A DNA stretch of 63,997 nt, the filler included, from Thraustochytrium aureum (taxonomy: Eukaryota): NCBI GenBank assembly GCA_012862495.1. It is 8 parts of 6 records of this genome, joined end to end, with 100 filler letters (N's around TTAATTAATTAA, not from the genome) between each part and the next. Parts side by side here need not be neighbours in the genome. Positions count along the whole stretch, not along the records: positions 30,272 to 38,855 come from BLSG01000260.1; 7 more parts are not named here. One strand, given 5' to 3'. Of this stretch, positions 23,452 through 37,417 are shown piece after piece. The position numbers and the translations under genes are program-made. The notes under the pieces are model-generated. The model made no database searches, had not been told where the DNA came from, and worked only from the letters and a program-made list of their open reading frames with translations. How positions within the stretch are numbered: the stretch's first letter is position 1; each line of letters opens with the position of its first letter.

Positions 23452-24478
23452 AAGATCTGAACTGATCCTACGCTGGCTGCTCGTCCTTGTTGGTAGAAAG
23501 TATTTCTGACAGAGTGTTGATGTTGATCGTTTCCCGTTTGGGCGGCGTGGAGGGAGCGCGTCGGTCCGCTCGCGACAAGCGGCTTGCCGCGCGGCGCTTG
23601 CCCCCGTGCGAGTTCACCGCTCCGCAGAGCGCGCGCGCGAGTTAGTGCGCCAACTGGGCGATGAGCGCCTCCGTGTGCGCCCAGAGCTCGCGCGCAAGTC
23701 CTGCGTCTTGGCAGAGCGGCGCTGCAGGAGCCACAGCCGCGTCATAATAGTAAAGCCCCGTCTCGTTCGCCGTGCCCGGGGNNNNNNNNNNNNNNNNNNN
23801 NNNNNNNNNNNNNNNNNNNNNNNNNTTAATTAATTAANNNNNNNNNNNNNNNNNNNNNNNNNNNNNNNNNNNNNNNNNNNNCATCCTGTCCAAGTCGCTG
23901 CAGAAGTCGGTCTTCGGGACGCTTTGAGGCAGCAAGGATACTCGTGCATTTGCAAATTTGCAGCACAGCTCGCAGGCGACGGGTGGTGAGAGTTTTCGCT
24001 TTTCGTTCTCACACCTGGGACAAACAGCAAGCCAGAAGCCGGTGCGCCATGTTTTTTGTTGTTTTTTCGGCGTTTTTCGCGTCCCACGCGCCAAAACAAA
24101 CCCCAAAATCGTTGAGACCGTGCTCGTGCAATGTGCAGTGGACTGACCGGTCCGGTCCGGGCTCCAGACCGGTCATGTCTCCCGGACGAGTGCTTGAAAA
24201 GGCGGCCGTTGGGTTTGGAGCCGGGCTGCTTTCCTTTGCGCGCTGGCCGCAGAAATGCGGAGCGCAGCGTGTTATGGTGTTGTGCGTGCTTGCGAGCGAG
24301 TCACGTGACGTGAAGGCGATTCACGCGGCGATGTGGCGACGGAAGTGGGTGCCAAGCCAACTTCTCGAGCAGCCTGGGCACCAGCAAAACCTCATCGCGA
24401 ACGGGCTCGAGCAGAGACCGGCAAGAAATAAAGCCAAAGCAAGCTCTCCACACGAGCGAGAGTCAACCAGCAAGCCTG

Positions 24479-27043
24479 ATGACGGCGTGGAGCGCGGCGA
24501 CGCTCGCCGCACTGACAGCGCTTGTCGGGCTCGCCCAGCAAGCCGACGGGCATGGCCTGATGACTGTCCCCAAGTCGCGCAACCAAGTCGCTCACGAAAA
24601 GGGACTCAACTACTGCGAGCACTGCATGAACTCGGGTGGGACGGGCACCGTAATCGCGAACGACGCGAACGGCGGCATCTGGGTGCGCAACTACCCCGAG
24701 ACGAGCGCGAGCGCCGTGCGCCACGGGTTGTGCGGCGACCCTGCTGGGGACGACAAGCACATGTTTGGGGGGTCTATCTACGGCACGCCGCAGGGCGGCA
24801 ACGTGCAAGCCGTGTACGAGCAGGGGGCTTCCATCGACATTACGATCGACGTCCGCACGCACCACCACGGATGGTTTGAGTTTTACTTGTGCGACATGCG
24901 AGGCGGGCCCACCACTCTGACGCAAGACTGCCTCAATGCAAACCAGCTGATGCGCGACCCGGAGGACCCCTCAGAGAGCCCCGTCGACGACAATTACCCT
25001 GGCCGCTTTTACATGATCCCCAAGTGCGCCCCCGGCGCAATGCTGCAGACGATGCGGTACAGGCTTCCCGCAGACCTCACCTGCGAGCACTGCGTGCTCC
25101 AGTGGTACTGGGTGACCGCCAACAGCTGCCACGGGGGCGGGTACGTAGGGGTGGACTTCCCAAACACGTACTCCGACTGCATCGGTGATGGCGGGGCCCG
25201 AGGCTGGGAGCCTCGCAGCGTGACTGGCGCTCGATGCTCCGAGGCGTCCACAACGTACCCGGAGGAGTTTTGGAACTGTGCTGACATCGCCATCATGCCG
25301 GCAGGCTCGCCCACCGCGAGGCCCGCGCCCTCGTCGAGCCCGCCGCCCGTGCCAGCGCCGACAGCCGCGAGCCCGCAGACAGCGCCTACATCGGCCCCGC
25401 CCCCGTCTGGAGGCTGCGCGGCTGCCGTGCCGAGCGGGACGGACTGCTCGACGGCGCCAGACTGCTGCCCGAGCGGCACGCGGTGCTTCCGCAAGAACCA
25501 GTGGTGGGCCGGTTGCCTCGAGTCGTGCCAAGCGGGCTGGGTTGACAACTACGACCAGCTGCCCTGGGCATGCACGCTCCTCAGCGGCGGCAGCGGGGAA
25601 GCGGAATGCGGAGCGGACGCCACGCTCGGCGCTGTCAGCAGCCAGGGCTTTGCCCGCACGCACGGCAAGCTCAAGCTGGATGGCGTGCAGCTTGTGGGTT
25701 CCCGGGGCGAGCCCGTGCAGCTCGTGGGCATGAGCTCGCACGGCGTGCACTGGTTCCCCAACTGCTACACGTTCGAGAGCATCGCTTTCTTGGTGCGGAA
25801 TTGGGGCATCAACGTGTTTCGCGCCGCCATGTACGTCGGCGAGGGCGGGTATGCGTCGAGCCGCGCCGACGCCCAAATCGTCAAGAGCATCGTCGACTGG
25901 TGCGAGCAGCTCGGCATCTACGTTGTCATCGACTGGCACGTGCTGGCGCCGGGCGACCCGAACGCGTGGCTGGACGGCCGGGGCGCGAGCTCGGGGCTTG
26001 CCATCGACTTTTGGACCGAAATGGCGGAGCTTTACAAGGACAAAGACCACGTTCTGTATGAGGTAGCCAACGAACCCAACGGGGTGTCGTGGTCCGTGGT
26101 CAAGGCGTACCACGACGCGGTCATCCCTGCCATCCGCGCCATCGACCCGGAGACGATCATCATCGCAGGAACCACAACGTGGAGCCAAGACATCCACCTT
26201 GCGGCTGCCGATCCAGTCGCCCACCCGTACAACGTCATGTACGCTTTCCATTTTTACGCAGGCACGCACGCCTCACTCTACCAGCGCGTCGTCAGCAACA
26301 TGGACCGGATCCCGATTTTCGTCTCCGAGTGGGGCACTTCTGCAGCATCGGGCGACGGGGGCCCCTTTCTGGACGTTGCGCAAGACTTTCTCGACTTGTT
26401 CTCTGGGGCGGTGGGCTCCTCGCCCGTTCGCCTCAGCTGGGCGCAATGGAGCTTTGCCGACAAGGTCGAGGTCTCTGCGGCGCTGCAGTCTGGCTCGTGC
26501 GCCTCAAGGCAGTGGGACGATACCAAGTGCTCTGGGACTTGGGTTCGCAACTATATCAAGCGTTTGGTTTTGAGCCAGCAGGGCGTGACAAACCCGCCGA
26601 CGCCCCTTGCCCCATCGGCTTCCCCGCCCACGACATTGCCGCCCACGACATTGCCGCCGACTACGATGCCGCCCACGACATTGCCGCCTACGACATTGCC
26701 GCCCACGACATTGCCGCCCACGACATTGCCGCCCACGACATTGCCGCCGACTACGATGCCGCCCACGACATTGCCGCCCACGACATTGCCGCCCACGACA
26801 TTGCCGCCGACTACCGAGAGCAGCTGCGCCCCGCTCTACAGCCAATGCGGGGGCTCCGGCACAAGCCCCAAAACGTGCTGCCAAGGATCGATCTGCCATC
26901 GTCAATCCCAGTGGTACTCGCAGTGCGTGCCTGACCCAGCACGTACGTGCAAGAACGTGCACGAGTCATGCACAAATTCTGCGTGCTGCCCCGCGTACGA
27001 GTGCCGCGGCGACAGATGGTACAAGCAGTGCTACCTAAAGTAG
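24479..27043 (+). CDS. Secreted modular CAZyme: AA15-type LPMO + Cys-rich CBM1-like + GH5 (subfamily 2-like) endoglucanase + PT linker + CBM1-like modules
   Basis: Signal peptide ending ADG then His1 (HGLMTVPKSR); GLCGDP, HHHGWFEF, LTCEHCVLQWYW, EEFWNCADI. GH5 motifs VQLVGMSSHG, IDWH, ANEP, HFYA, SEWG. CBM1-like YSQCGG..CC..QWYSQC. Confidence 0.92.
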   Translation: MTAWSAATLAALTALVGLAQQADGHGLMTVPKSRNQVAHEKGLNYCEHCMNSGGTGTVIANDANGGIWVRNYPETSASAVRHGLCGDPAGDDKHMFGGSIYGTPQGGNVQAVYEQGASIDITIDVRTHHHGWFEFYLCDMRGGPTTLTQDCLNANQLMRDPEDPSESPVDDNYPGRFYMIPKCAPGAMLQTMRYRLPADLTCEHCVLQWYWVTANSCHGGGYVGVDFPNTYSDCIGDGGARGWEPRSVTGARCSEASTTYPEEFWNCADIAIMPAGSPTARPAPSSSPPPVPAPTAASPQTAPTSAPPPSGGCAAAVPSGTDCSTAPDCCPSGTRCFRKNQWWAGCLESCQAGWVDNYDQLPWACTLLSGGSGEAECGADATLGAVSSQGFARTHGKLKLDGVQLVGSRGEPVQLVGMSSHGVHWFPNCYTFESIAFLVRNWGINVFRAAMYVGEGGYASSRADAQIVKSIVDWCEQLGIYVVIDWHVLAPGDPNAWLDGRGASSGLAIDFWTEMAELYKDKDHVLYEVANEPNGVSWSVVKAYHDAVIPAIRAIDPETIIIAGTTTWSQDIHLAAADPVAHPYNVMYAFHFYAGTHASLYQRVVSNMDRIPIFVSEWGTSAASGDGGPFLDVAQDFLDLFSGAVGSSPVRLSWAQWSFADKVEVSAALQSGSCASRQWDDTKCSGTWVRNYIKRLVLSQQGVTNPPTPLAPSASPPTTLPPTTLPPTTMPPTTLPPTTLPPTTLPPTTLPPTTLPPTTMPPTTLPPTTLPPTTLPPTTESSCAPLYSQCGGSGTSPKTCCQGSICHRQSQWYSQCVPDPARTCKNVHESCTNSACCPAYECRGDRWYKQCYLK
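26624..26815 (+). repeat. Coding 15-bp tandem repeat, PPTT(L/M) x12 plus a partial copy; O-glycosylation-type linker
   Basis: GCCCACGACATTGCC-like units are directly visible. Confidence 0.95.
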
Positions 27044-30842: not shown

Positions 30843-30918
30843 GAACTCCATCACGGCGAAACCCACCATTTCAGGAACTCCATCACGGCGAAACCCAGGA
30901 ACTCCATCACGGCGAAAC
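30843..30918. repeat. Three copies of GAACTCCATCACGGCGAAAC
   Basis: Copies start at about 30843, 30875 and 30899. Confidence 0.85.
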
Positions 30919-32227
30919 TCCCGCCCGCGGCTCATCCGACGAGAACGAACGACAGCGCCAAGGACTGTTCGCGATCAAGCAGGTCTTCGCGATCATGACG
31001 AACCGATCAAGTTCCTGGCCGAGTTGAGAACAGAAAACACGCCAGCAACGCGCGGTACAACCTGCCGCGGCCATCGCCCATGAACCAAACAATACGACCA
31101 CAACGAACCCAAGCGACCCTAATCGTGAGGAGGAAGCCTTGCGCCAATGAAGCGAGCTGCATGAAGCGGCTCAACGGCGCGGATAGGCTACTCGGAGAGT
31201 CCTTGGTGACGTGTGAGAGACTCCCTGCGATCACGACGCAGGCTTGCTCGCCCGTGCAAGCCCACGATCCTCAAAGGGGCAGGCCCACACCTCTTCAACA
31301 AGGCAATTCACTCCAAACGACTCGGAAACGACCAGAGAAAACGCCAACGACCAGAAGATTGATCGCCTTTGCAGGATCAGCGGCAGCACACTTCGACGAA
31401 TGTCCCTGCCAAAAGAAACTCGCGTTCTACCGGATCCGGCTCCTCGCCGCTGCCGATGCCTACAAGTGCGACGGCGGCCGCACTGATGATAATGCTCGAG
31501 CGCATTCGCACGGACATGCGGCTGCTTTCGACGAGCATTCGGTCACCGAGCTCACTCGCACTAGATGAAGCAGCGTTCAGAGACGCGCTGTCAATAACTG
31601 TCAATAATCGCGCAACTGCCTACCACGACGCTGCGTGTGATCTGCGTCATGGGACGGGGCGGTTAGAGCGCCAGGCCTTTGTCGACAGGCCCATGTTGTG
31701 GCTCTTCCCTCGCCCTCCAACCCCTCCAGCGCTCCCGGCCTTGTGCTGCATGCTGCGACGCGCGCAGCCGTGCCGTGATTCAACCCATGTCGTTTTGTTG
31801 GTTGCTGGGCCGCGGGGCGCGCGCTGTAGTGGAGTGGCGGAGGCGGAGGTGGCGAAAGTGGCCGTTGCGCTTCCTGTTTTGTCATCCTTGGCTTGGGCTG
31901 CCGGTGGCTCTGCGCCGAGAACGGTGCGCCCTCCTTGCGCATTCCTGAGCAAGCCATCTGCGTGGCCAGCAGGGTGGAGCGAAAACCGACCTACCTTGCC
32001 GCCGGTGGTGGTGTCGATACAGCGAGGGCCGAAAAGAGCCCCCCATTCACTCAGAGCCGTGCCTTTCCTCCAGCCAGCCAGCCAGCCAGCCTGCCAGCCG
32101 ACGCACCGCGAGCAGGACCCTTTCGCAAAGGCCACGGACGAGCGTACCGGCGGCAAGGCTTGCCGGCGAAGGCGCAGCTTGCCGTGAGCGCCTCGCGCGT
32201 CTCGGCTGGGCTCGTCCGCTAACGGAC

Positions 32228-34161
32228 ATGGAGCAGCCGCAAGAGCCCAAGCCAGCGAGCAAGGGGCTCCTGACGCGGGTCTATGGCGCAGTGCTCGGGG
32301 CCGCCCTTGGCGCCGTGATCGGGGCCTCCGGGGAAGCCGGCGTCACCTCGAGGCTTGCCGTCGCCGCTGGCGTGGGGCCCCGACGCCGAAACATCAAGGC
32401 TGAGCCAAGCGCCAAACAACCGGGCTCGAACGCGACCCTTTTGGCGTCAACCGGACAGCGCATGCACGCATCGAACGTGTCCAAGTTTGCAACCGCCAGG
32501 GCCGCGAGCAGGGCCGCGCTCGAGCTCGCCAGAGCCGGCGAGCGCGCCGCACAACTCGCGCATGAACTTCAGACGGCCTCCGACGAGGCCGCCGCGCGCC
32601 TCAAGCAGCACGACCTCGGGCCGGCCAGCGACGTCGAGGGCGCCATCTTCGCACGAAAGGGAAGAAAGACGTATGGGGCTTTCCCGACACGTCCCTTCGC
32701 CCAAAAGACGACATTGCAGCGTGGGAAGAGGAAGTACGGCATGCTCTTGCTGTAGCCAAGGACCGCGGCGAAGGCCACGACGAGGTGGAGGCGGTCATCC
32801 GCCGGAGCGGGGCGCGCCTGCCTGGAGAGGTCCTGTTCAAGCTCCCTGCCCTGGGGGCAGGCCCTGAGAAAGAGCCGGCCTGCTTCAAGGCGGCTGAGGC
32901 CAAGACTTGCGGGTTTTCCGCTGGGCCGCTCTCTGCAAATTGCGACGAGGACGCGACACACGTCGAACTCGACCTCCTGGAGTCGTTCTACTCCTGGCTT
33001 CCTCGCGAAGCCTCGGTCTCGCACGGGCAACTTGACGGCGCAAATCGCACGTTTGCAGGCGAGCTGGCTTCAGAGCGACATGGGGAACGCGACAGCGTCC
33101 TCGAGACAGAGCCCTTCCAGGCGCTGTGCCGCATTGCGTGGGAGGGCGAACTTGAGCGGCCTCAAGCTTCTGCTGCCGAGGTCATTCGGCGGTTCCACGA
33201 GCGGGAGAGCGCGCTGTGCAACCTAGCGCAGCGAATCCCCGCCGACAAGGAGCTGCGCGGGCTGTGGGCCCCGTTCGCCTTTCGCGTTCTGCAGCAGGCG
33301 CATCCAGGCGTCGCGATCACCGCAGAGGCTGCCTCTGCTGTGAACGACATCATTACGGACCTTATGATGCGGCTCACCGACCCCACCGGCGGCCTCTTCG
33401 ACGAGGCAGGCAAAGTCAGCGTCGTGGACGTGTCAAGGTCGGCGCGCCTCGCCCTCGTTGGCGAGCTCGCAGAACGAGCCGTGGTGGAGGGAATGCGCGC
33501 GGCCGCAGGCAGCTCGGGGTGCGTCCCAGACCGCTTGCCGCAGACGGAGGAAGAGCAACTGAAAGCCCACCTTGTTTTCCCAATCGCCCTGATCGCACAG
33601 GCCGTTTGCAGGCGCCGGGGCGTCGCCATACAGCCGTCTGCTGCGCGATTCCTTGCGGCGGCACTCGAATACATGACGGCAGAGGTGCTCGAGCTCGCGG
33701 CAGACAGGTCTCGCGAGCACCTTCGCGACTTCATCACGCTCCGGGACGTCCACCTCGGCATCGCCGAGGACGCAGAGCTGGCGGGTTCCTTCCCGGGCCG
33801 TTCTTTTGCTGTGGCCTTTGCTGGGAGTCGCCCGGCGGAGGAGGCGCAGCTCGAGCCTGAACAGTCCATCGCTGTCCAAGAGAGGGATGCTCGGGCTGTT
33901 CGGGAGCTACAAGACGAGCAGACCAGTCGCTACGCGGCGATCCCTCGCGATGCGATGCGCGATGCCGTTCGAGGGGTAGCCAGCGAGGCGATCGGCGAGT
34001 ACGAATTCACTGCCGCTGCGCTTGACGCGCTTCATGCCGCTTGCGAGCAGCATCTGCTCACTACTTTTGTGGCTGCCTCCGAGGTCGCTTCCGCTGGCAA
34101 GCGGCACTGGCTGCGCCGCGAGGACCTGCTTTGTGTGAAGAGGATGCGCAGCGGGCCGTAA
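32228..34161 (+). CDS. Fused histone multiplet protein (N-terminal extension + H2B + H2A + H3 folds); start uncertain, probable frameshift near 32640
   Basis: H2B: FAFRVLQQAHPGVAIT..NDIITDLMMRL..ARLALVGELAERAVVEGMRA. H2A: AHLVFPI..AARFLAAALEYMTAEVLELA..ITLRDVHLGIAEDAEL. H3: AVRELQDEQTS..IPRDAMRDAVRGVA..FTAAALDALHAACEQHL..GKRHWLRREDL..KRMR. All lie in one frame. Confidence 0.88.
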
Positions 34162-34491: not shown

Positions 34492-36942
34492 CTAACCGGC
34501 CGCCCGCTTCTGGTACGCGTCGAGGTCGCCCTCCTCGCGCTCGAGGGCTTCCTGGTCCGCCTCCATTGTCGTTGCGGCCAGGATCTTGCGGGGCTGCGTC
34601 CTGGCGTACGCTGCGCGTATGCCCAAGTCATCCCCGCCGTCGCCGCCGCGCGCGCGCTTGGGGACGTGCGCGTCAAGCGCGTCCTCTGGAAGTGCAAACT
34701 TTAGCAACTCTTCTCGGGGGTCGGCGCNNNNNNNNNNNNNNNNNNNNNNNNNNNNNNNNNNNNNNNNNNNNNNNNNNNNNNNNNNNNNNNNNNNNNNNNN
34801 NNNNNNNNNNNNNNNNNNNNNNNNNNNNNNNNNNNNNNNNNNNNNNNNNNNNNNNNNNNNNNNNNNNNNNNNNNNNNNNNNNNNNNNNNNNNNNNNNNNN
34901 NNNNNNNNNNNNNNNNNNNNNNNNNNNNNNNNNNNNNNNNNNNNNNNNNNNNNNNNNNNNNNNNNNNNNACCTGCGTAGGGTCTTTGGACATCGACCGCC
35001 GCGCTGCATCGGGCGCTGGCGGCAGGTCGGGTCTGCCCGAGCGCCGAGCGTCTTCGCGAGCAGCCCTGTCCCGCTTGCTCTTGCTTTGGTGCTTGGCTGC
35101 GGGCTCTTTGCGGAACATTGGCAGCGCGTTTGGGAGGATGATTTCCTGGCGGTCTGTGCGCGTGGAGACTGCCTCTGAGACGTCGTTGTCGCTCTTTCGA
35201 GCAGCCGCCCGGCCCGAGCTCAGAAGGGCACCCTTCTTGGAGAGCCCGTCGTCGAAGAGCACGCGCGCAGTCCCGTCGCCGCAACCCACGACGAGTTGGT
35301 TGATGCGCTCGTGCCACTCGACGCAAATCACTGCGCGGTTGCGCGCGCCCCAGGTTGGGTCCACGGCGAGGCGGCGAGGAGCCACGTCAGCGCCGTTCGC
35401 CGCGAGGAAAACCAGCTCGCCCGTCTCGGCGTCCCCTGCGACTACCAGGGAGCCGTCTGGGCTGAAGCAAACATTGGACTCGGAGCGCGCGGCAAGGCCG
35501 CGACCCACAACAAGCTCCACTACAGGCGCTTTGAGCTGGCGCACATCCCACAGCTTGAGTGTGCCAAGCTCGCTCCGCGTGGCTAGCACGCTCCCGGACG
35601 GCGAAAAACGCACCGCCGTGACCTCGCCCGGGCCGTGTGCTGGCCGAACGACCACATCCGGTTTGGAACTCGCCGAGCCCGCGCGCATGGCCCAAATCTG
35701 GATCGAGCCGTCAGATGCGCCCGCAGCGAGGCACCCACCTGCTGGGTCCATGGCGCAGGCGTGTACTTGGATCCTTGCATTTCGCGCGCTGCGGGCCTTG
35801 AGAACACTCGAGCAGATGAGCTCGTCGTCCAGAGCGGTGCGGGGCCCGCCCACGGGGTCCCAGATCCGGCAGGTCCCGTCAATCCCGCTGGTTATAAACA
35901 GGCTGCCGCTGCTCGGATGCCAGCACCCGTCCGTAATTTGCGAGGGGTGCCCCTTGGTCTTTTGCATGTCGTGCAGGTACGGATCGCCTTTGGTGGTGGC
36001 GATCATCGGAGCCCCGTCGCGGTCCAGAATGCGGGCCTTTGACGCAGCAGGGAGGGCCAATACGGACGCCCCAGACGGAGAAAACCGCACGTGACGAACT
36101 GCGTGACCCTCTGCTGGGGTGACCACGCGGAACGGCCGGTGGTCGGACGTCATTCCGCCAAAGTCCCACATTGCGACCTGGTGGTCGTACCCGGCTGTTG
36201 CGAGCCGTGCGCCGGGAGGGTCGAAGGATAGCGAGCAGACCCCCTTGTCGTGCGCGGCGAGCCGCACTTGCCGCCCGACTGGGAGTCCTTCCCACGGGTC
36301 GTCTTGGGGCGCCGGCCGTGCGCTGCCTTGCTCTTGCGGCTCGGCGGCGGGAAGGGGGTCCGCGCGAATGCTTGGGGCGCTGCTAAGCATTGCGTCGGTC
36401 ATGCGCTGGATGGCCGCGCGCCGCTCCTCGCGCGTGAGTCGCGCGTCGTCCACTAGCGCCACGCTGGCCGGCGGAGCCTCAATGTGCGACGCCGATGCAG
36501 GCCCAGATTGCGCGGGGGCCGACGTCACAAGGCGATAAACCCTCGAGCTCATTCCAAAGGTGACCTGCGCGCCCTGCGCAAGCCACACAAGCTCGCCTGG
36601 CCCGACTCGTTTGCCGTCAACAAAGGTCCCACAGGAGGACTTGAGGTCGACGAGGCCGATTCTCCCAGGCGCGCACGGCGCCACCGCGGCGTGCACCGCC
36701 GAAACAGACTTGTGCTCCATAACCACGTCCACCCTCTTGCGCTTGCGTCCGAGCACGACGGCGCGCGAGTGGCCGTCCCGTCCGAGGCCAAGCCGACCGC
36801 ATTCCGCAAGCAAGACCCGGCCAGCAACCTGCCCGTCCTTGACCACGTCAAACCAAGCGTCAAACCTCGCGAGCCCCTCCGCGGACCACCCTTCGCCGCC
36901 CCGCGCTCCAAACTCCTCCAGCGCGCTCTCCACGGCCTCCAT
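34492..36942 (-). CDS. WDR70: FHA domain + WDR70-like WD40 protein (internal gap)
   Basis: FHA: LGR..HKSVSAVHA..DLKSSCGTFVDG. WDR70: DPPGARLATAGYD..WDFGGM, ILDRDG..KGDPYLHDMQKTKGH, IILPNALPMF, DPREELLKFA..AYARTQP. Confidence 0.85.
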   Translation of the reverse strand: MEAVESALEEFGARGGEGWSAEGLARFDAWFDVVKDGQVAGRVLLAECGRLGLGRDGHSRAVVLGRKRKRVDVVMEHKSVSAVHAAVAPCAPGRIGLVDLKSSCGTFVDGKRVGPGELVWLAQGAQVTFGMSSRVYRLVTSAPAQSGPASASHIEAPPASVALVDDARLTREERRAAIQRMTDAMLSSAPSIRADPLPAAEPQEQGSARPAPQDDPWEGLPVGRQVRLAAHDKGVCSLSFDPPGARLATAGYDHQVAMWDFGGMTSDHRPFRVVTPAEGHAVRHVRFSPSGASVLALPAASKARILDRDGAPMIATTKGDPYLHDMQKTKGHPSQITDGCWHPSSGSLFITSGIDGTCRIWDPVGGPRTALDDELICSSVLKARSARNARIQVHACAMDPAGGCLAAGASDGSIQIWAMRAGSASSKPDVVVRPAHGPGEVTAVRFSPSGSVLATRSELGTLKLWDVRQLKAPVVELVVGRGLAARSESNVCFSPDGSLVVAGDAETGELVFLAANGADVAPRRLAVDPTWGARNRAVICVEWHERINQLVVGCGDGTARVLFDDGLSKKGALLSSGRAAARKSDNDVSEAVSTRTDRQEIILPNALPMFRKEPAAKHQSKSKRDRAAREDARRSGRPDLPPAPDAARRSMSKDPTQXXXXXXXXXXXXXXXXXXXXXXXXXXXXXXXXXXXXXXXXXXXXXXXXXXXXXXXXXXXXXXXXXXXXXXXXXXXXXXXXXXADPREELLKFALPEDALDAHVPKRARGGDGGDDLGIRAAYARTQPRKILAATTMEADQEALEREEGDLDAYQKRAAG

Positions 36943-37417
36943 CGCGTTCACGCTCTCGCTGCCACTCTCGCTGCCCCGCGCTCGCTGCTCACACCGTGCG
37001 TCCACGTAACCTAGTACCCCTCGTTACGAGGACCCGACCGCCAATCTCAACTTCCAAGAAATGGCACCAGGTGGTGGAGCGAGCAGTTCGGAGTTCGTTC
37101 GTGCGCGACCTCGAAGAGATCCGTTGATGTGGCGAGGGCGCATGCGTTTGCTTGCATGTCGCCGAATGCCTCGTCGAGTGCAGTGCATGTCGCGGACGAG
37201 CGCAGTGCGGCGGCGGCGGCAGAGTACGAGCGCGCGAGAGATCGACCCGTGCATCGATCTGCCCATCGCTCGATCGCTCGATCCATCCATCCATCCACCG
37301 GTTGATTGATTGATTGATTGATTGAGCGAGCGAGCGGGCGAGGCCACGTTGGTGTTGGCGGCTGGCCGAGCTTGACGTGAGCGACCGCCGGGCGAGGAAG
37401 GACAGGAAGCACGGACG

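Follow-up and report, generated by a model that had tools for sequence, protein, structure and literature searches.

Viral histone triplets are tail-less and carry their folds in the order H2B–H2A–H3 with short linkers (excerpts of PMC11222145, PMC9145170, and 10.1101/2024.12.06.627149; loci L001 and L002). Viral triplets probably arose via excision of H4, and histone fusions are described as not observed in eukaryotes (excerpts of PMC11222145). When combined with H4, a viral triplet forms particles (excerpts of 10.1101/2024.12.06.627149). The IMG/VR contig L002 contains two adjoining H2B–H2A–H3 triplets, one of which is much diverged, together with an H4 singlet.

In the SOS H domain, ABTB2/Cca3, and Cca3S, a cellular pseudodimer consisting of an H2B fold and then an H2A fold is part of a larger protein (excerpts of PMC13088155). 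Predicted eukaryotic proteins with several core-histone folds are also found in databases (PMC13520046; P0167-type rows). These animal multiplets are 75–100% identical to canonical histones, retain the DNA contacts, and derive from clustered histone genes; they are suspected to result from mis-splicing or mis-annotation, and no eukaryotic fusion is confirmed (excerpts of PMC9145170). The main text of PMC13520046 contains only near-canonical, mostly animal database fusions. No description of acidic multi-histone fusions in protists was found in the literature covered, in which subscription journals are thinly represented and supplements are set aside, nor in the available passages of PMC10919886, 10.1101/2021.11.30.470311, and PMC13525598. 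The family of long acidic multi-histone fusions described below is thus apparently undescribed.

The window (the whole stretch of DNA analyzed, 63,997 nucleotides from Thraustochytrium aureum) contains a gene at 32228–34161 (+ strand) that resembles the viral triplets in fold order, short linkers, and lack of tails. Unlike these, it has a cellular context, is acidic (the viral triplets have a pI of about 10), has lost its DNA contacts, and bears a long N-terminal extension. Also unlike viral triplets with H4 singlets, it is found in a window devoid of an H4 gene as judged by core-histone profiles, and the two groups are separate in most trees.

Gene Model and Histone Folds

The whole gene (32228–34161, +) begins at an ATG at 32228 and comprises two overlapping ORFs, which are joined via an extra base present in a contig of the DNA run X1; it is probably intronless. 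The histone-bearing frame (32566–34161, +) has 531 codons without a stop, and the upstream ORF from the ATG at 32228 is in a different frame. This ATG is probably the start of the gene, and the full-length product is then 644 aa with a net charge of −16 (break position read as X). The start, which was overlooked in the earlier note, lies about 1 kb upstream of the folds, and about 345 aa precede H2B. GC3 along the three parts of the gene is 0.82, 0.71, and 0.73.

In the window's copy, the frame is broken by one base at 32652–32653 (+), and an extra A behind 32652 brings both ORFs into a single frame; this repair comes from one X1 contig (depth 5.7), the only contig to span the site among the sequencing runs compared. 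Unless the extra base is present, the histone frame has its first ATG within H2B. Three nearby genes have comparable mid-domain frame breaks, at about 2350, 15515, and 43700, in a RhoGEF-containing gene, a GST gene, and an EF-hand acyltransferase-like gene, respectively, and judging by these breaks, indel errors seem to be frequent in the assembly. The break at 32652 is therefore probably an assembly error, and possibly a null allele. An intron replacing the missing base was considered and rejected: 11 GT–AG pairs could restore the frame and none is backed by a contig joint, at a place that no RNA contig spans.

All three folds that the earlier note had read in one frame are present, with concurring evidence from core-histone profiles, PDB sequence search, Pfam, and AlphaFold. 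The H2B fold (33265–33510, +), the H2A fold (33556–33804, +), and the H3 fold with helix αN (33883–34158, +) were each detected by the first three and modeled by AlphaFold. Profile scores are 49 bits for H2B (33265–33504), 58 bits for H2A (33556–33804), and 33.5 bits for H3 (33883–34104), and no further histone fold, H4 included, exceeds 3 bits when all six frames of the window are scored. The top matches in the PDB sequence search are engineered H2B–H2A chimeras (E 2.5e-19), and the last fold alone matches solely H3 chains, helix αN included, among the best 60 of 143 (best E 6.7e-4). AlphaFold with a 12-row alignment yields three folds (mean pLDDT 77.6); single-sequence prediction is uninformative (pLDDT 37.9). 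The H2B–H2A model superposes on engineered single-chain H2B–H2A dimers with a TM score of 0.87 (target) and an rmsd of about 2.6, and less well on SOS or the Melbournevirus doublets.

The linkers between the folds consist of 15 and 26 aa and are both acidic, and basic tails are absent, as the earlier note had stated. The H2B–H2A linker is bridged by contigs of X1 and X2. At the H2A–H3 linker, contigs of X4, X1, and X2 overlap, with no single listed contig entering both folds. Neither a stop nor an indel is found within the folds in four runs, where covered, nor a stop or misjoin between them across the contigs of X1, X2, and X4. Because independent contigs bridge or overlap the linkers in this way, neither a misjoin nor mis-splicing accounts for the fusion. 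Like the animal multiplets, the locus combines a number of core-histone folds within a single predicted eukaryotic protein; unlike them, it consists of one unspliced open frame with about 30% identity, and mis-annotation of clustered histone genes is rejected on these grounds and by the bridging contigs. The triplet is thus confirmed as a genuine single-chain H2B–H2A–H3 fusion.

The pseudodimer shared with the SOS/ABTB2 type is probably a protein-interaction module. A similar logic, with the pseudodimer serving as a protein module (excerpts of PMC13088155), and the appearance of the SOS histone domain at rank 37 of the fold search (E 9e-8) are consistent with a known non-nucleosomal histone-fold protein (SOS, ABTB2/Cca3, SPT3, TAF, or NF-Y). 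This identity is nevertheless very improbable: core histones score far better than NF-Y, TAF, and SOS by sequence and by fold (in Pfam, Histone E 1.4e-10 versus NF-Y/HMF 0.056), the DH–PH–RasGEF and ankyrin–BTB domains are absent from both ORFs (Pfam), and those families have two folds, none with an added H3. The relatives of the locus, moreover, bear all four folds, unlike the double histone folds of SOS and ABTB2.

Near the beginning of the N-terminal region lies a glycine-zipper-like hydrophobic stretch (32264–32329, +; Kyte–Doolittle 1.65 over 19 aa) with a match to Pfam Gly-zipper_OmpA under the cut-off (E 0.042), which weakly suggests a possible membrane anchor. Basic clusters are also located close to the N-terminus. 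An acidic part (32656–33264, +; net charge −11), with no Pfam family and no match among the best 150 of 1140 hits, follows and leads up to the H2B fold. A hidden H4 in the N-terminal region is rejected, as H4 profiles score no better than on local shuffles and the hhalign probability is 0.4%; an H4 likeness noticed by eye likewise failed against shuffles.

Relatives and Phylogenetic Placement

The best 150 of 1140 hits have 24–37% identity, confined to the folds, and three kinds can be told apart: near-canonical rows, long acidic fusions, and basic multiplets of compact build, the last of which group with IMG/VR loci. With a profile built from the long acidic fusions, 209 proteins are retrieved, and dozens of the best 120 are 600–1360 aa long. 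In these long fusions the typical fold order is H2B–H2A–H4–H3, the other order being H4–H2B–H2A–H3, mostly with an insertion within H2B. Additional domains include RING (3 of 28 scanned), SAP, R3H, and Ras/Roc GTPase, which are cellular in kind, and the profile matches include one MMETSP entry and one complete EukProt transcript ORF. These two protist transcriptome entries and the domain content indicate that the relatives are probably cellular. P0041 carries a Ras/Roc (Ran-like) GTPase domain ahead of a split-H2B–H2A–H3 triplet.

In an LG+G4 tree (121 rows, 287 columns), the locus lies within a 44-row group (SH-aLRT 99) that is separate from both the canonical and the viral rows; this group was delimited from the tree rather than named in advance. 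The tree omits 25 animal annotation fusions, 22 near-duplicates or fragments, most doublets, and five long viral-side branches, P0009 among them, and the 18 IMG/VR loci of a second pattern scan are outside all trees. Among the 43 rows grouping with the locus (P0091, P0216, P0258, P0088, P0041, P0043, and 37 more), 38 are net negative, the median length is 776 aa, and H4 and a split H2B are each found in 34; the H4 fold is absent in the other nine, some of which are fragments. The group is retained after removal of 35 basic columns (SH-aLRT 94) or of four Ala-rich rows (99), and H2B-only and H3-only trees also place the locus inside the long acidic group. Under C20 the locus stays in the group, with a support of 68 for the exact 44-row set. 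When 237 placements are tried, 99.98% of the likelihood weight falls on the long acidic group. The diagnostic residues comprise 5 of 10 for the family and 2 of 15 for the outgroup.

The long acidic fusions and the locus have in common that H2B–H2A comes first and H3 last, that the chain is acidic, and that DNA contacts are lost and the acidic patch is kept; diagnostic residues and a disturbed H2B α2–L2 are shared as well. The locus differs in having no H4, no H2B insertion, and no long spacers; its N-terminus is unrelated, and its H3–H3′ bundle and docking domain are more eroded. These sequence comparisons make it likely that the locus belongs to the long acidic multi-histone family.

The earlier note had offered a domesticated viral triplet and an independent cellular fusion as the two possible origins. 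A one-off fusion is weakened, as the gene appears as a reduced member of a four-fold family, and viral origin is weakened by the placement and by most trees. Transfer of a Nucleocytoviricota H2B–H2A–H3 triplet, followed by loss of its basic surface, would explain the fold order and compact spacing, and database searches give viral proteins first: a 343-aa viral cluster in the ESM Atlas (score 0.93) and an LCMAC102 protein in BFVD, for a model built on viral-type rows. These viral-first results reflect architecture. AU tests give no firm exclusion: of the six top viral placements, four are rejected, as are all six top canonical ones, but the other two viral placements have p-AU 0.053 and 0.060, and with a smaller row set a viral-side placement has p-AU 0.33. 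FastTree on H2B+H2A puts the locus beside the basic viral-type quadruplet P0009 (flagged as long-branch attraction), and a larger tree built on H2A alone pairs it with a viral-side row as sister; the locus is the longest branch in the trees (1.4–2.2) and has a biased composition. Against such a transfer, the best viral placement is 17 log-likelihood units worse, removal of the basic columns leaves the locus in place, few outgroup-diagnostic residues are present, nearby viral genes and a GC shift are absent, and a direct IMG/VR scan with the triplet finds no relative (a single viral-type query likewise finds none). Viral descent is accordingly regarded as quite improbable.

No orthologue is found by word search with the triplet, and the longer ORF gives one distant hit. 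Metagenome contigs yield one ordinary H2A only, and a GTDB scan returns a single basic doublet and stray clusters of canonical histones, with no family member in context. Long acidic forms are absent among 27 and 18 IMG/VR histone loci from two insensitive pattern scans, which cover partly the same contigs. The canonical eukaryotic histone clusters L051–L063 lie within several bacterial GTDB MAGs and are evidently contamination.

Other fusions are found outside the acidic family. P0023, P0187, and P0219 are five- or six-fold fusions (H4–H2B–H2A–H3–H4–H3) that branch with canonical histones, and represent a separate fusion event. Many H2B–H2A doublets branch on the cellular side (P0018, P0026, P0027, P0028, P0031, P0048, P0067, P0249, P0272, and others); FG-rich low-complexity tails or an N-terminal ubiquitin occur in some, and the doublets may make up a second cellular class of fusions. 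The near-canonical H2B–H2A doublets P0029 and P0055 have an N-terminal hydrophobic, signal-peptide-like leader, which would direct these histone fusions to secretion or to an organelle.

Residue-Level Surface and Proposed Role

The triplet contains 4 lysines and has a net charge of −10 and a pI of 5.3, whereas eleven compact viral-type triplets range from +20 to +43, with pI 9.7–10.6. With canonical numbering and site lists of DNA contacts, patch, and interfaces, 10 of 32 DNA contacts and 7 of 9 acidic-patch residues are kept (Fisher p 0.02). Mean retention in the family is 0.24–0.35 for DNA contacts and 0.95–0.98 for the patch, and on the viral side 0.57–0.66 and 0.90–0.93; as the patch is conserved nearly equally in viral histones, its retention may be partly structural. 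A patch retained beside an erased DNA path is the surface signature of the family.

Residue loss in the locus is selective, not uniform. In H2B, Pro-Gly-Gly near 33376–33393 shortens helix α2, Glu105 and Glu113 are retained, and 4 of 9 residues of the H2B–H4 bundle are kept; at the place of this α2 break, 34 of 43 relatives have an insertion, which the locus itself lacks. In H2A, the patch residues Glu56, Glu61, Glu64, Asp90, and Glu92 are retained and Arg29, Arg32, Arg35, Arg42, and Arg77 are lost; the core is kept at 9 of 10 positions, and the docking domain is degenerate (4 of 13). In H3, the H4-facing core is kept at 10 of 15 positions, DNA contacts at 5 of 15, and the H3–H3′ bundle at 3 of 10 (His113, Leu109, and Cys110 are lost). 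The suggestion of the earlier note that only H4 would be needed for a half-nucleosome is not borne out: because the chain is acidic and DNA contacts and the H3–H3′ and H2B–H4 interfaces are largely lost, a DNA-wrapping half-nucleosome is unlikely.

The same residues bear on a possible role as a specialized chromatin variant, in which the chain would recruit host H4 and enter or cap nucleosomes, giving unstable, poorly wrapped particles. Short H2A variants provide the comparison for such particles. The well-kept H4-facing H3 core, the presence of helix αN, and the intact H2A core are compatible with this role, and the N-terminal basic clusters could be nuclear signals. Viral triplets with H4 do form nucleosome-like particles (excerpts of 10.1101/2024.12.06.627149). 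The net acidic charge, the depleted H3–H3′ bundle and docking domain, the H2B–H4 bundle with its broken α2, and the 345-aa N-terminal extension with a hydrophobic stretch all argue against it, and render the role unlikely.

The favored explanation, to which we give slightly better than even chances, is that the gene encodes a reduced, fast-evolving member of an acidic, probably cellular fusion family, and that its product is predicted to be a non-wrapping, protein-binding mimic of the nucleosome surface. H2B and H2A are predicted by the structural model to fold onto each other within one chain, and this pseudodimer would serve as a scaffold or a decoy whose acidic patch is open to arginine-anchor proteins. 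Candidate partners would be chromatin readers, remodelers, chaperones, or viral nucleosome binders. The lone H3 fold may take cellular H4 on loan or may be decaying. The triplet may have arisen from a four-fold ancestor by loss of H4 and spacers, and so would have converged upon the viral order.

A broader proposal is put forward tentatively, at less than even confidence: that protists possess ancient, widespread single-chain histone fusions, apart from canonical and viral histones, which became nucleosome mimics free of DNA, some of them joined to RING, SAP, or GTPase domains, and that the gene is an H4-less cellular member with a convergent order. If so, fused histones have survived in eukaryotic cells, contrary to the published view, and would form a third lineage of core-histone folds bearing on nucleosome origins, possibly a living trace of a fused stage in nucleosome evolution. 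The protein would then be a natural DNA-free nucleosome mimic that is directly expressible and testable. The locus is a genomic, unspliced, apparently constrained fusion in a cellular setting, and through it a family of 43 or more sequences comes to light.

Genomic Context, Constraint, and Expression

The cellular nature of the scaffold, asserted in the earlier note from the lack of viral hallmarks and the host-like GC, agrees with a Pfam scan of 35 window ORFs, which gives cellular families only: RhoGEF, HOOK, GST, calcineurin-like, GH5/LPMO, ATP-grasp, RRN3, aminotransferase, fn3, GMC, ankyrin, EF-hand, and sulfatase. None of the 35 is a viral hallmark gene. No GC shift is present around the gene, and the GC3 of the triplet (0.73) is host-like, at the low end of the window (0.74–0.92 in 9 neighbors). 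The window is intron-poor and has no tRNA gene. The neighbors of the gene encode an FHA+WD40 protein and a TPH protein, compatible with the WDR70 and CFAP210 named earlier. In the convergent neighbor (34495–37023, −), which resembles WDR70, an FHA domain is located ahead of the WD40 propeller, and an N gap of 242 corresponds to 41 bases in two runs. WDR70 is linked to H2B ubiquitination.

The four runs have 24 coding differences, of which 14 are synonymous versus 26% expected (p 0.0007; low-depth contigs, transition bias ignored), and 10 are non-synonymous, one of them in H3. The coding region is apparently under constraint, judging from these differences. Contigs of X2, X7, and X11, all guessed to be RNA runs, lie over genes and are absent at 30846–31993, a stretch covered by DNA runs. 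Of the gene itself, X2 has pieces, X7 a small piece, and X11 nothing. X2 is probably an RNA run (its type is guessed by the tool), and its cover is a hint of transcription of the gene, short of one proven transcript.

These data also bear on whether the gene is a decaying relic, that is, an eroding, H4-less family member that is under weak constraint or, in this strain, has already become a pseudogene. The frame break at 32652, the branch length, the low-end GC3, the ten non-synonymous differences, and the lack of any relative above 37% identity among the best 150 of 1140 hits are what such decay would leave. However, the strain differences have a synonymous excess, the folds are free of stops and indels in four runs where covered, and similar breaks in three neighboring genes suggest assembly errors; together with the selective rather than uniform loss of residues and the probable RNA cover, these make decay improbable, and the reading as a reduced, probably cellular family member is preferred.

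Elsewhere in the window, an ORF at 24314–27040 (+) encodes an LPMO_10 domain fused to a GH5 cellulase, and its tail is rich in repeats.
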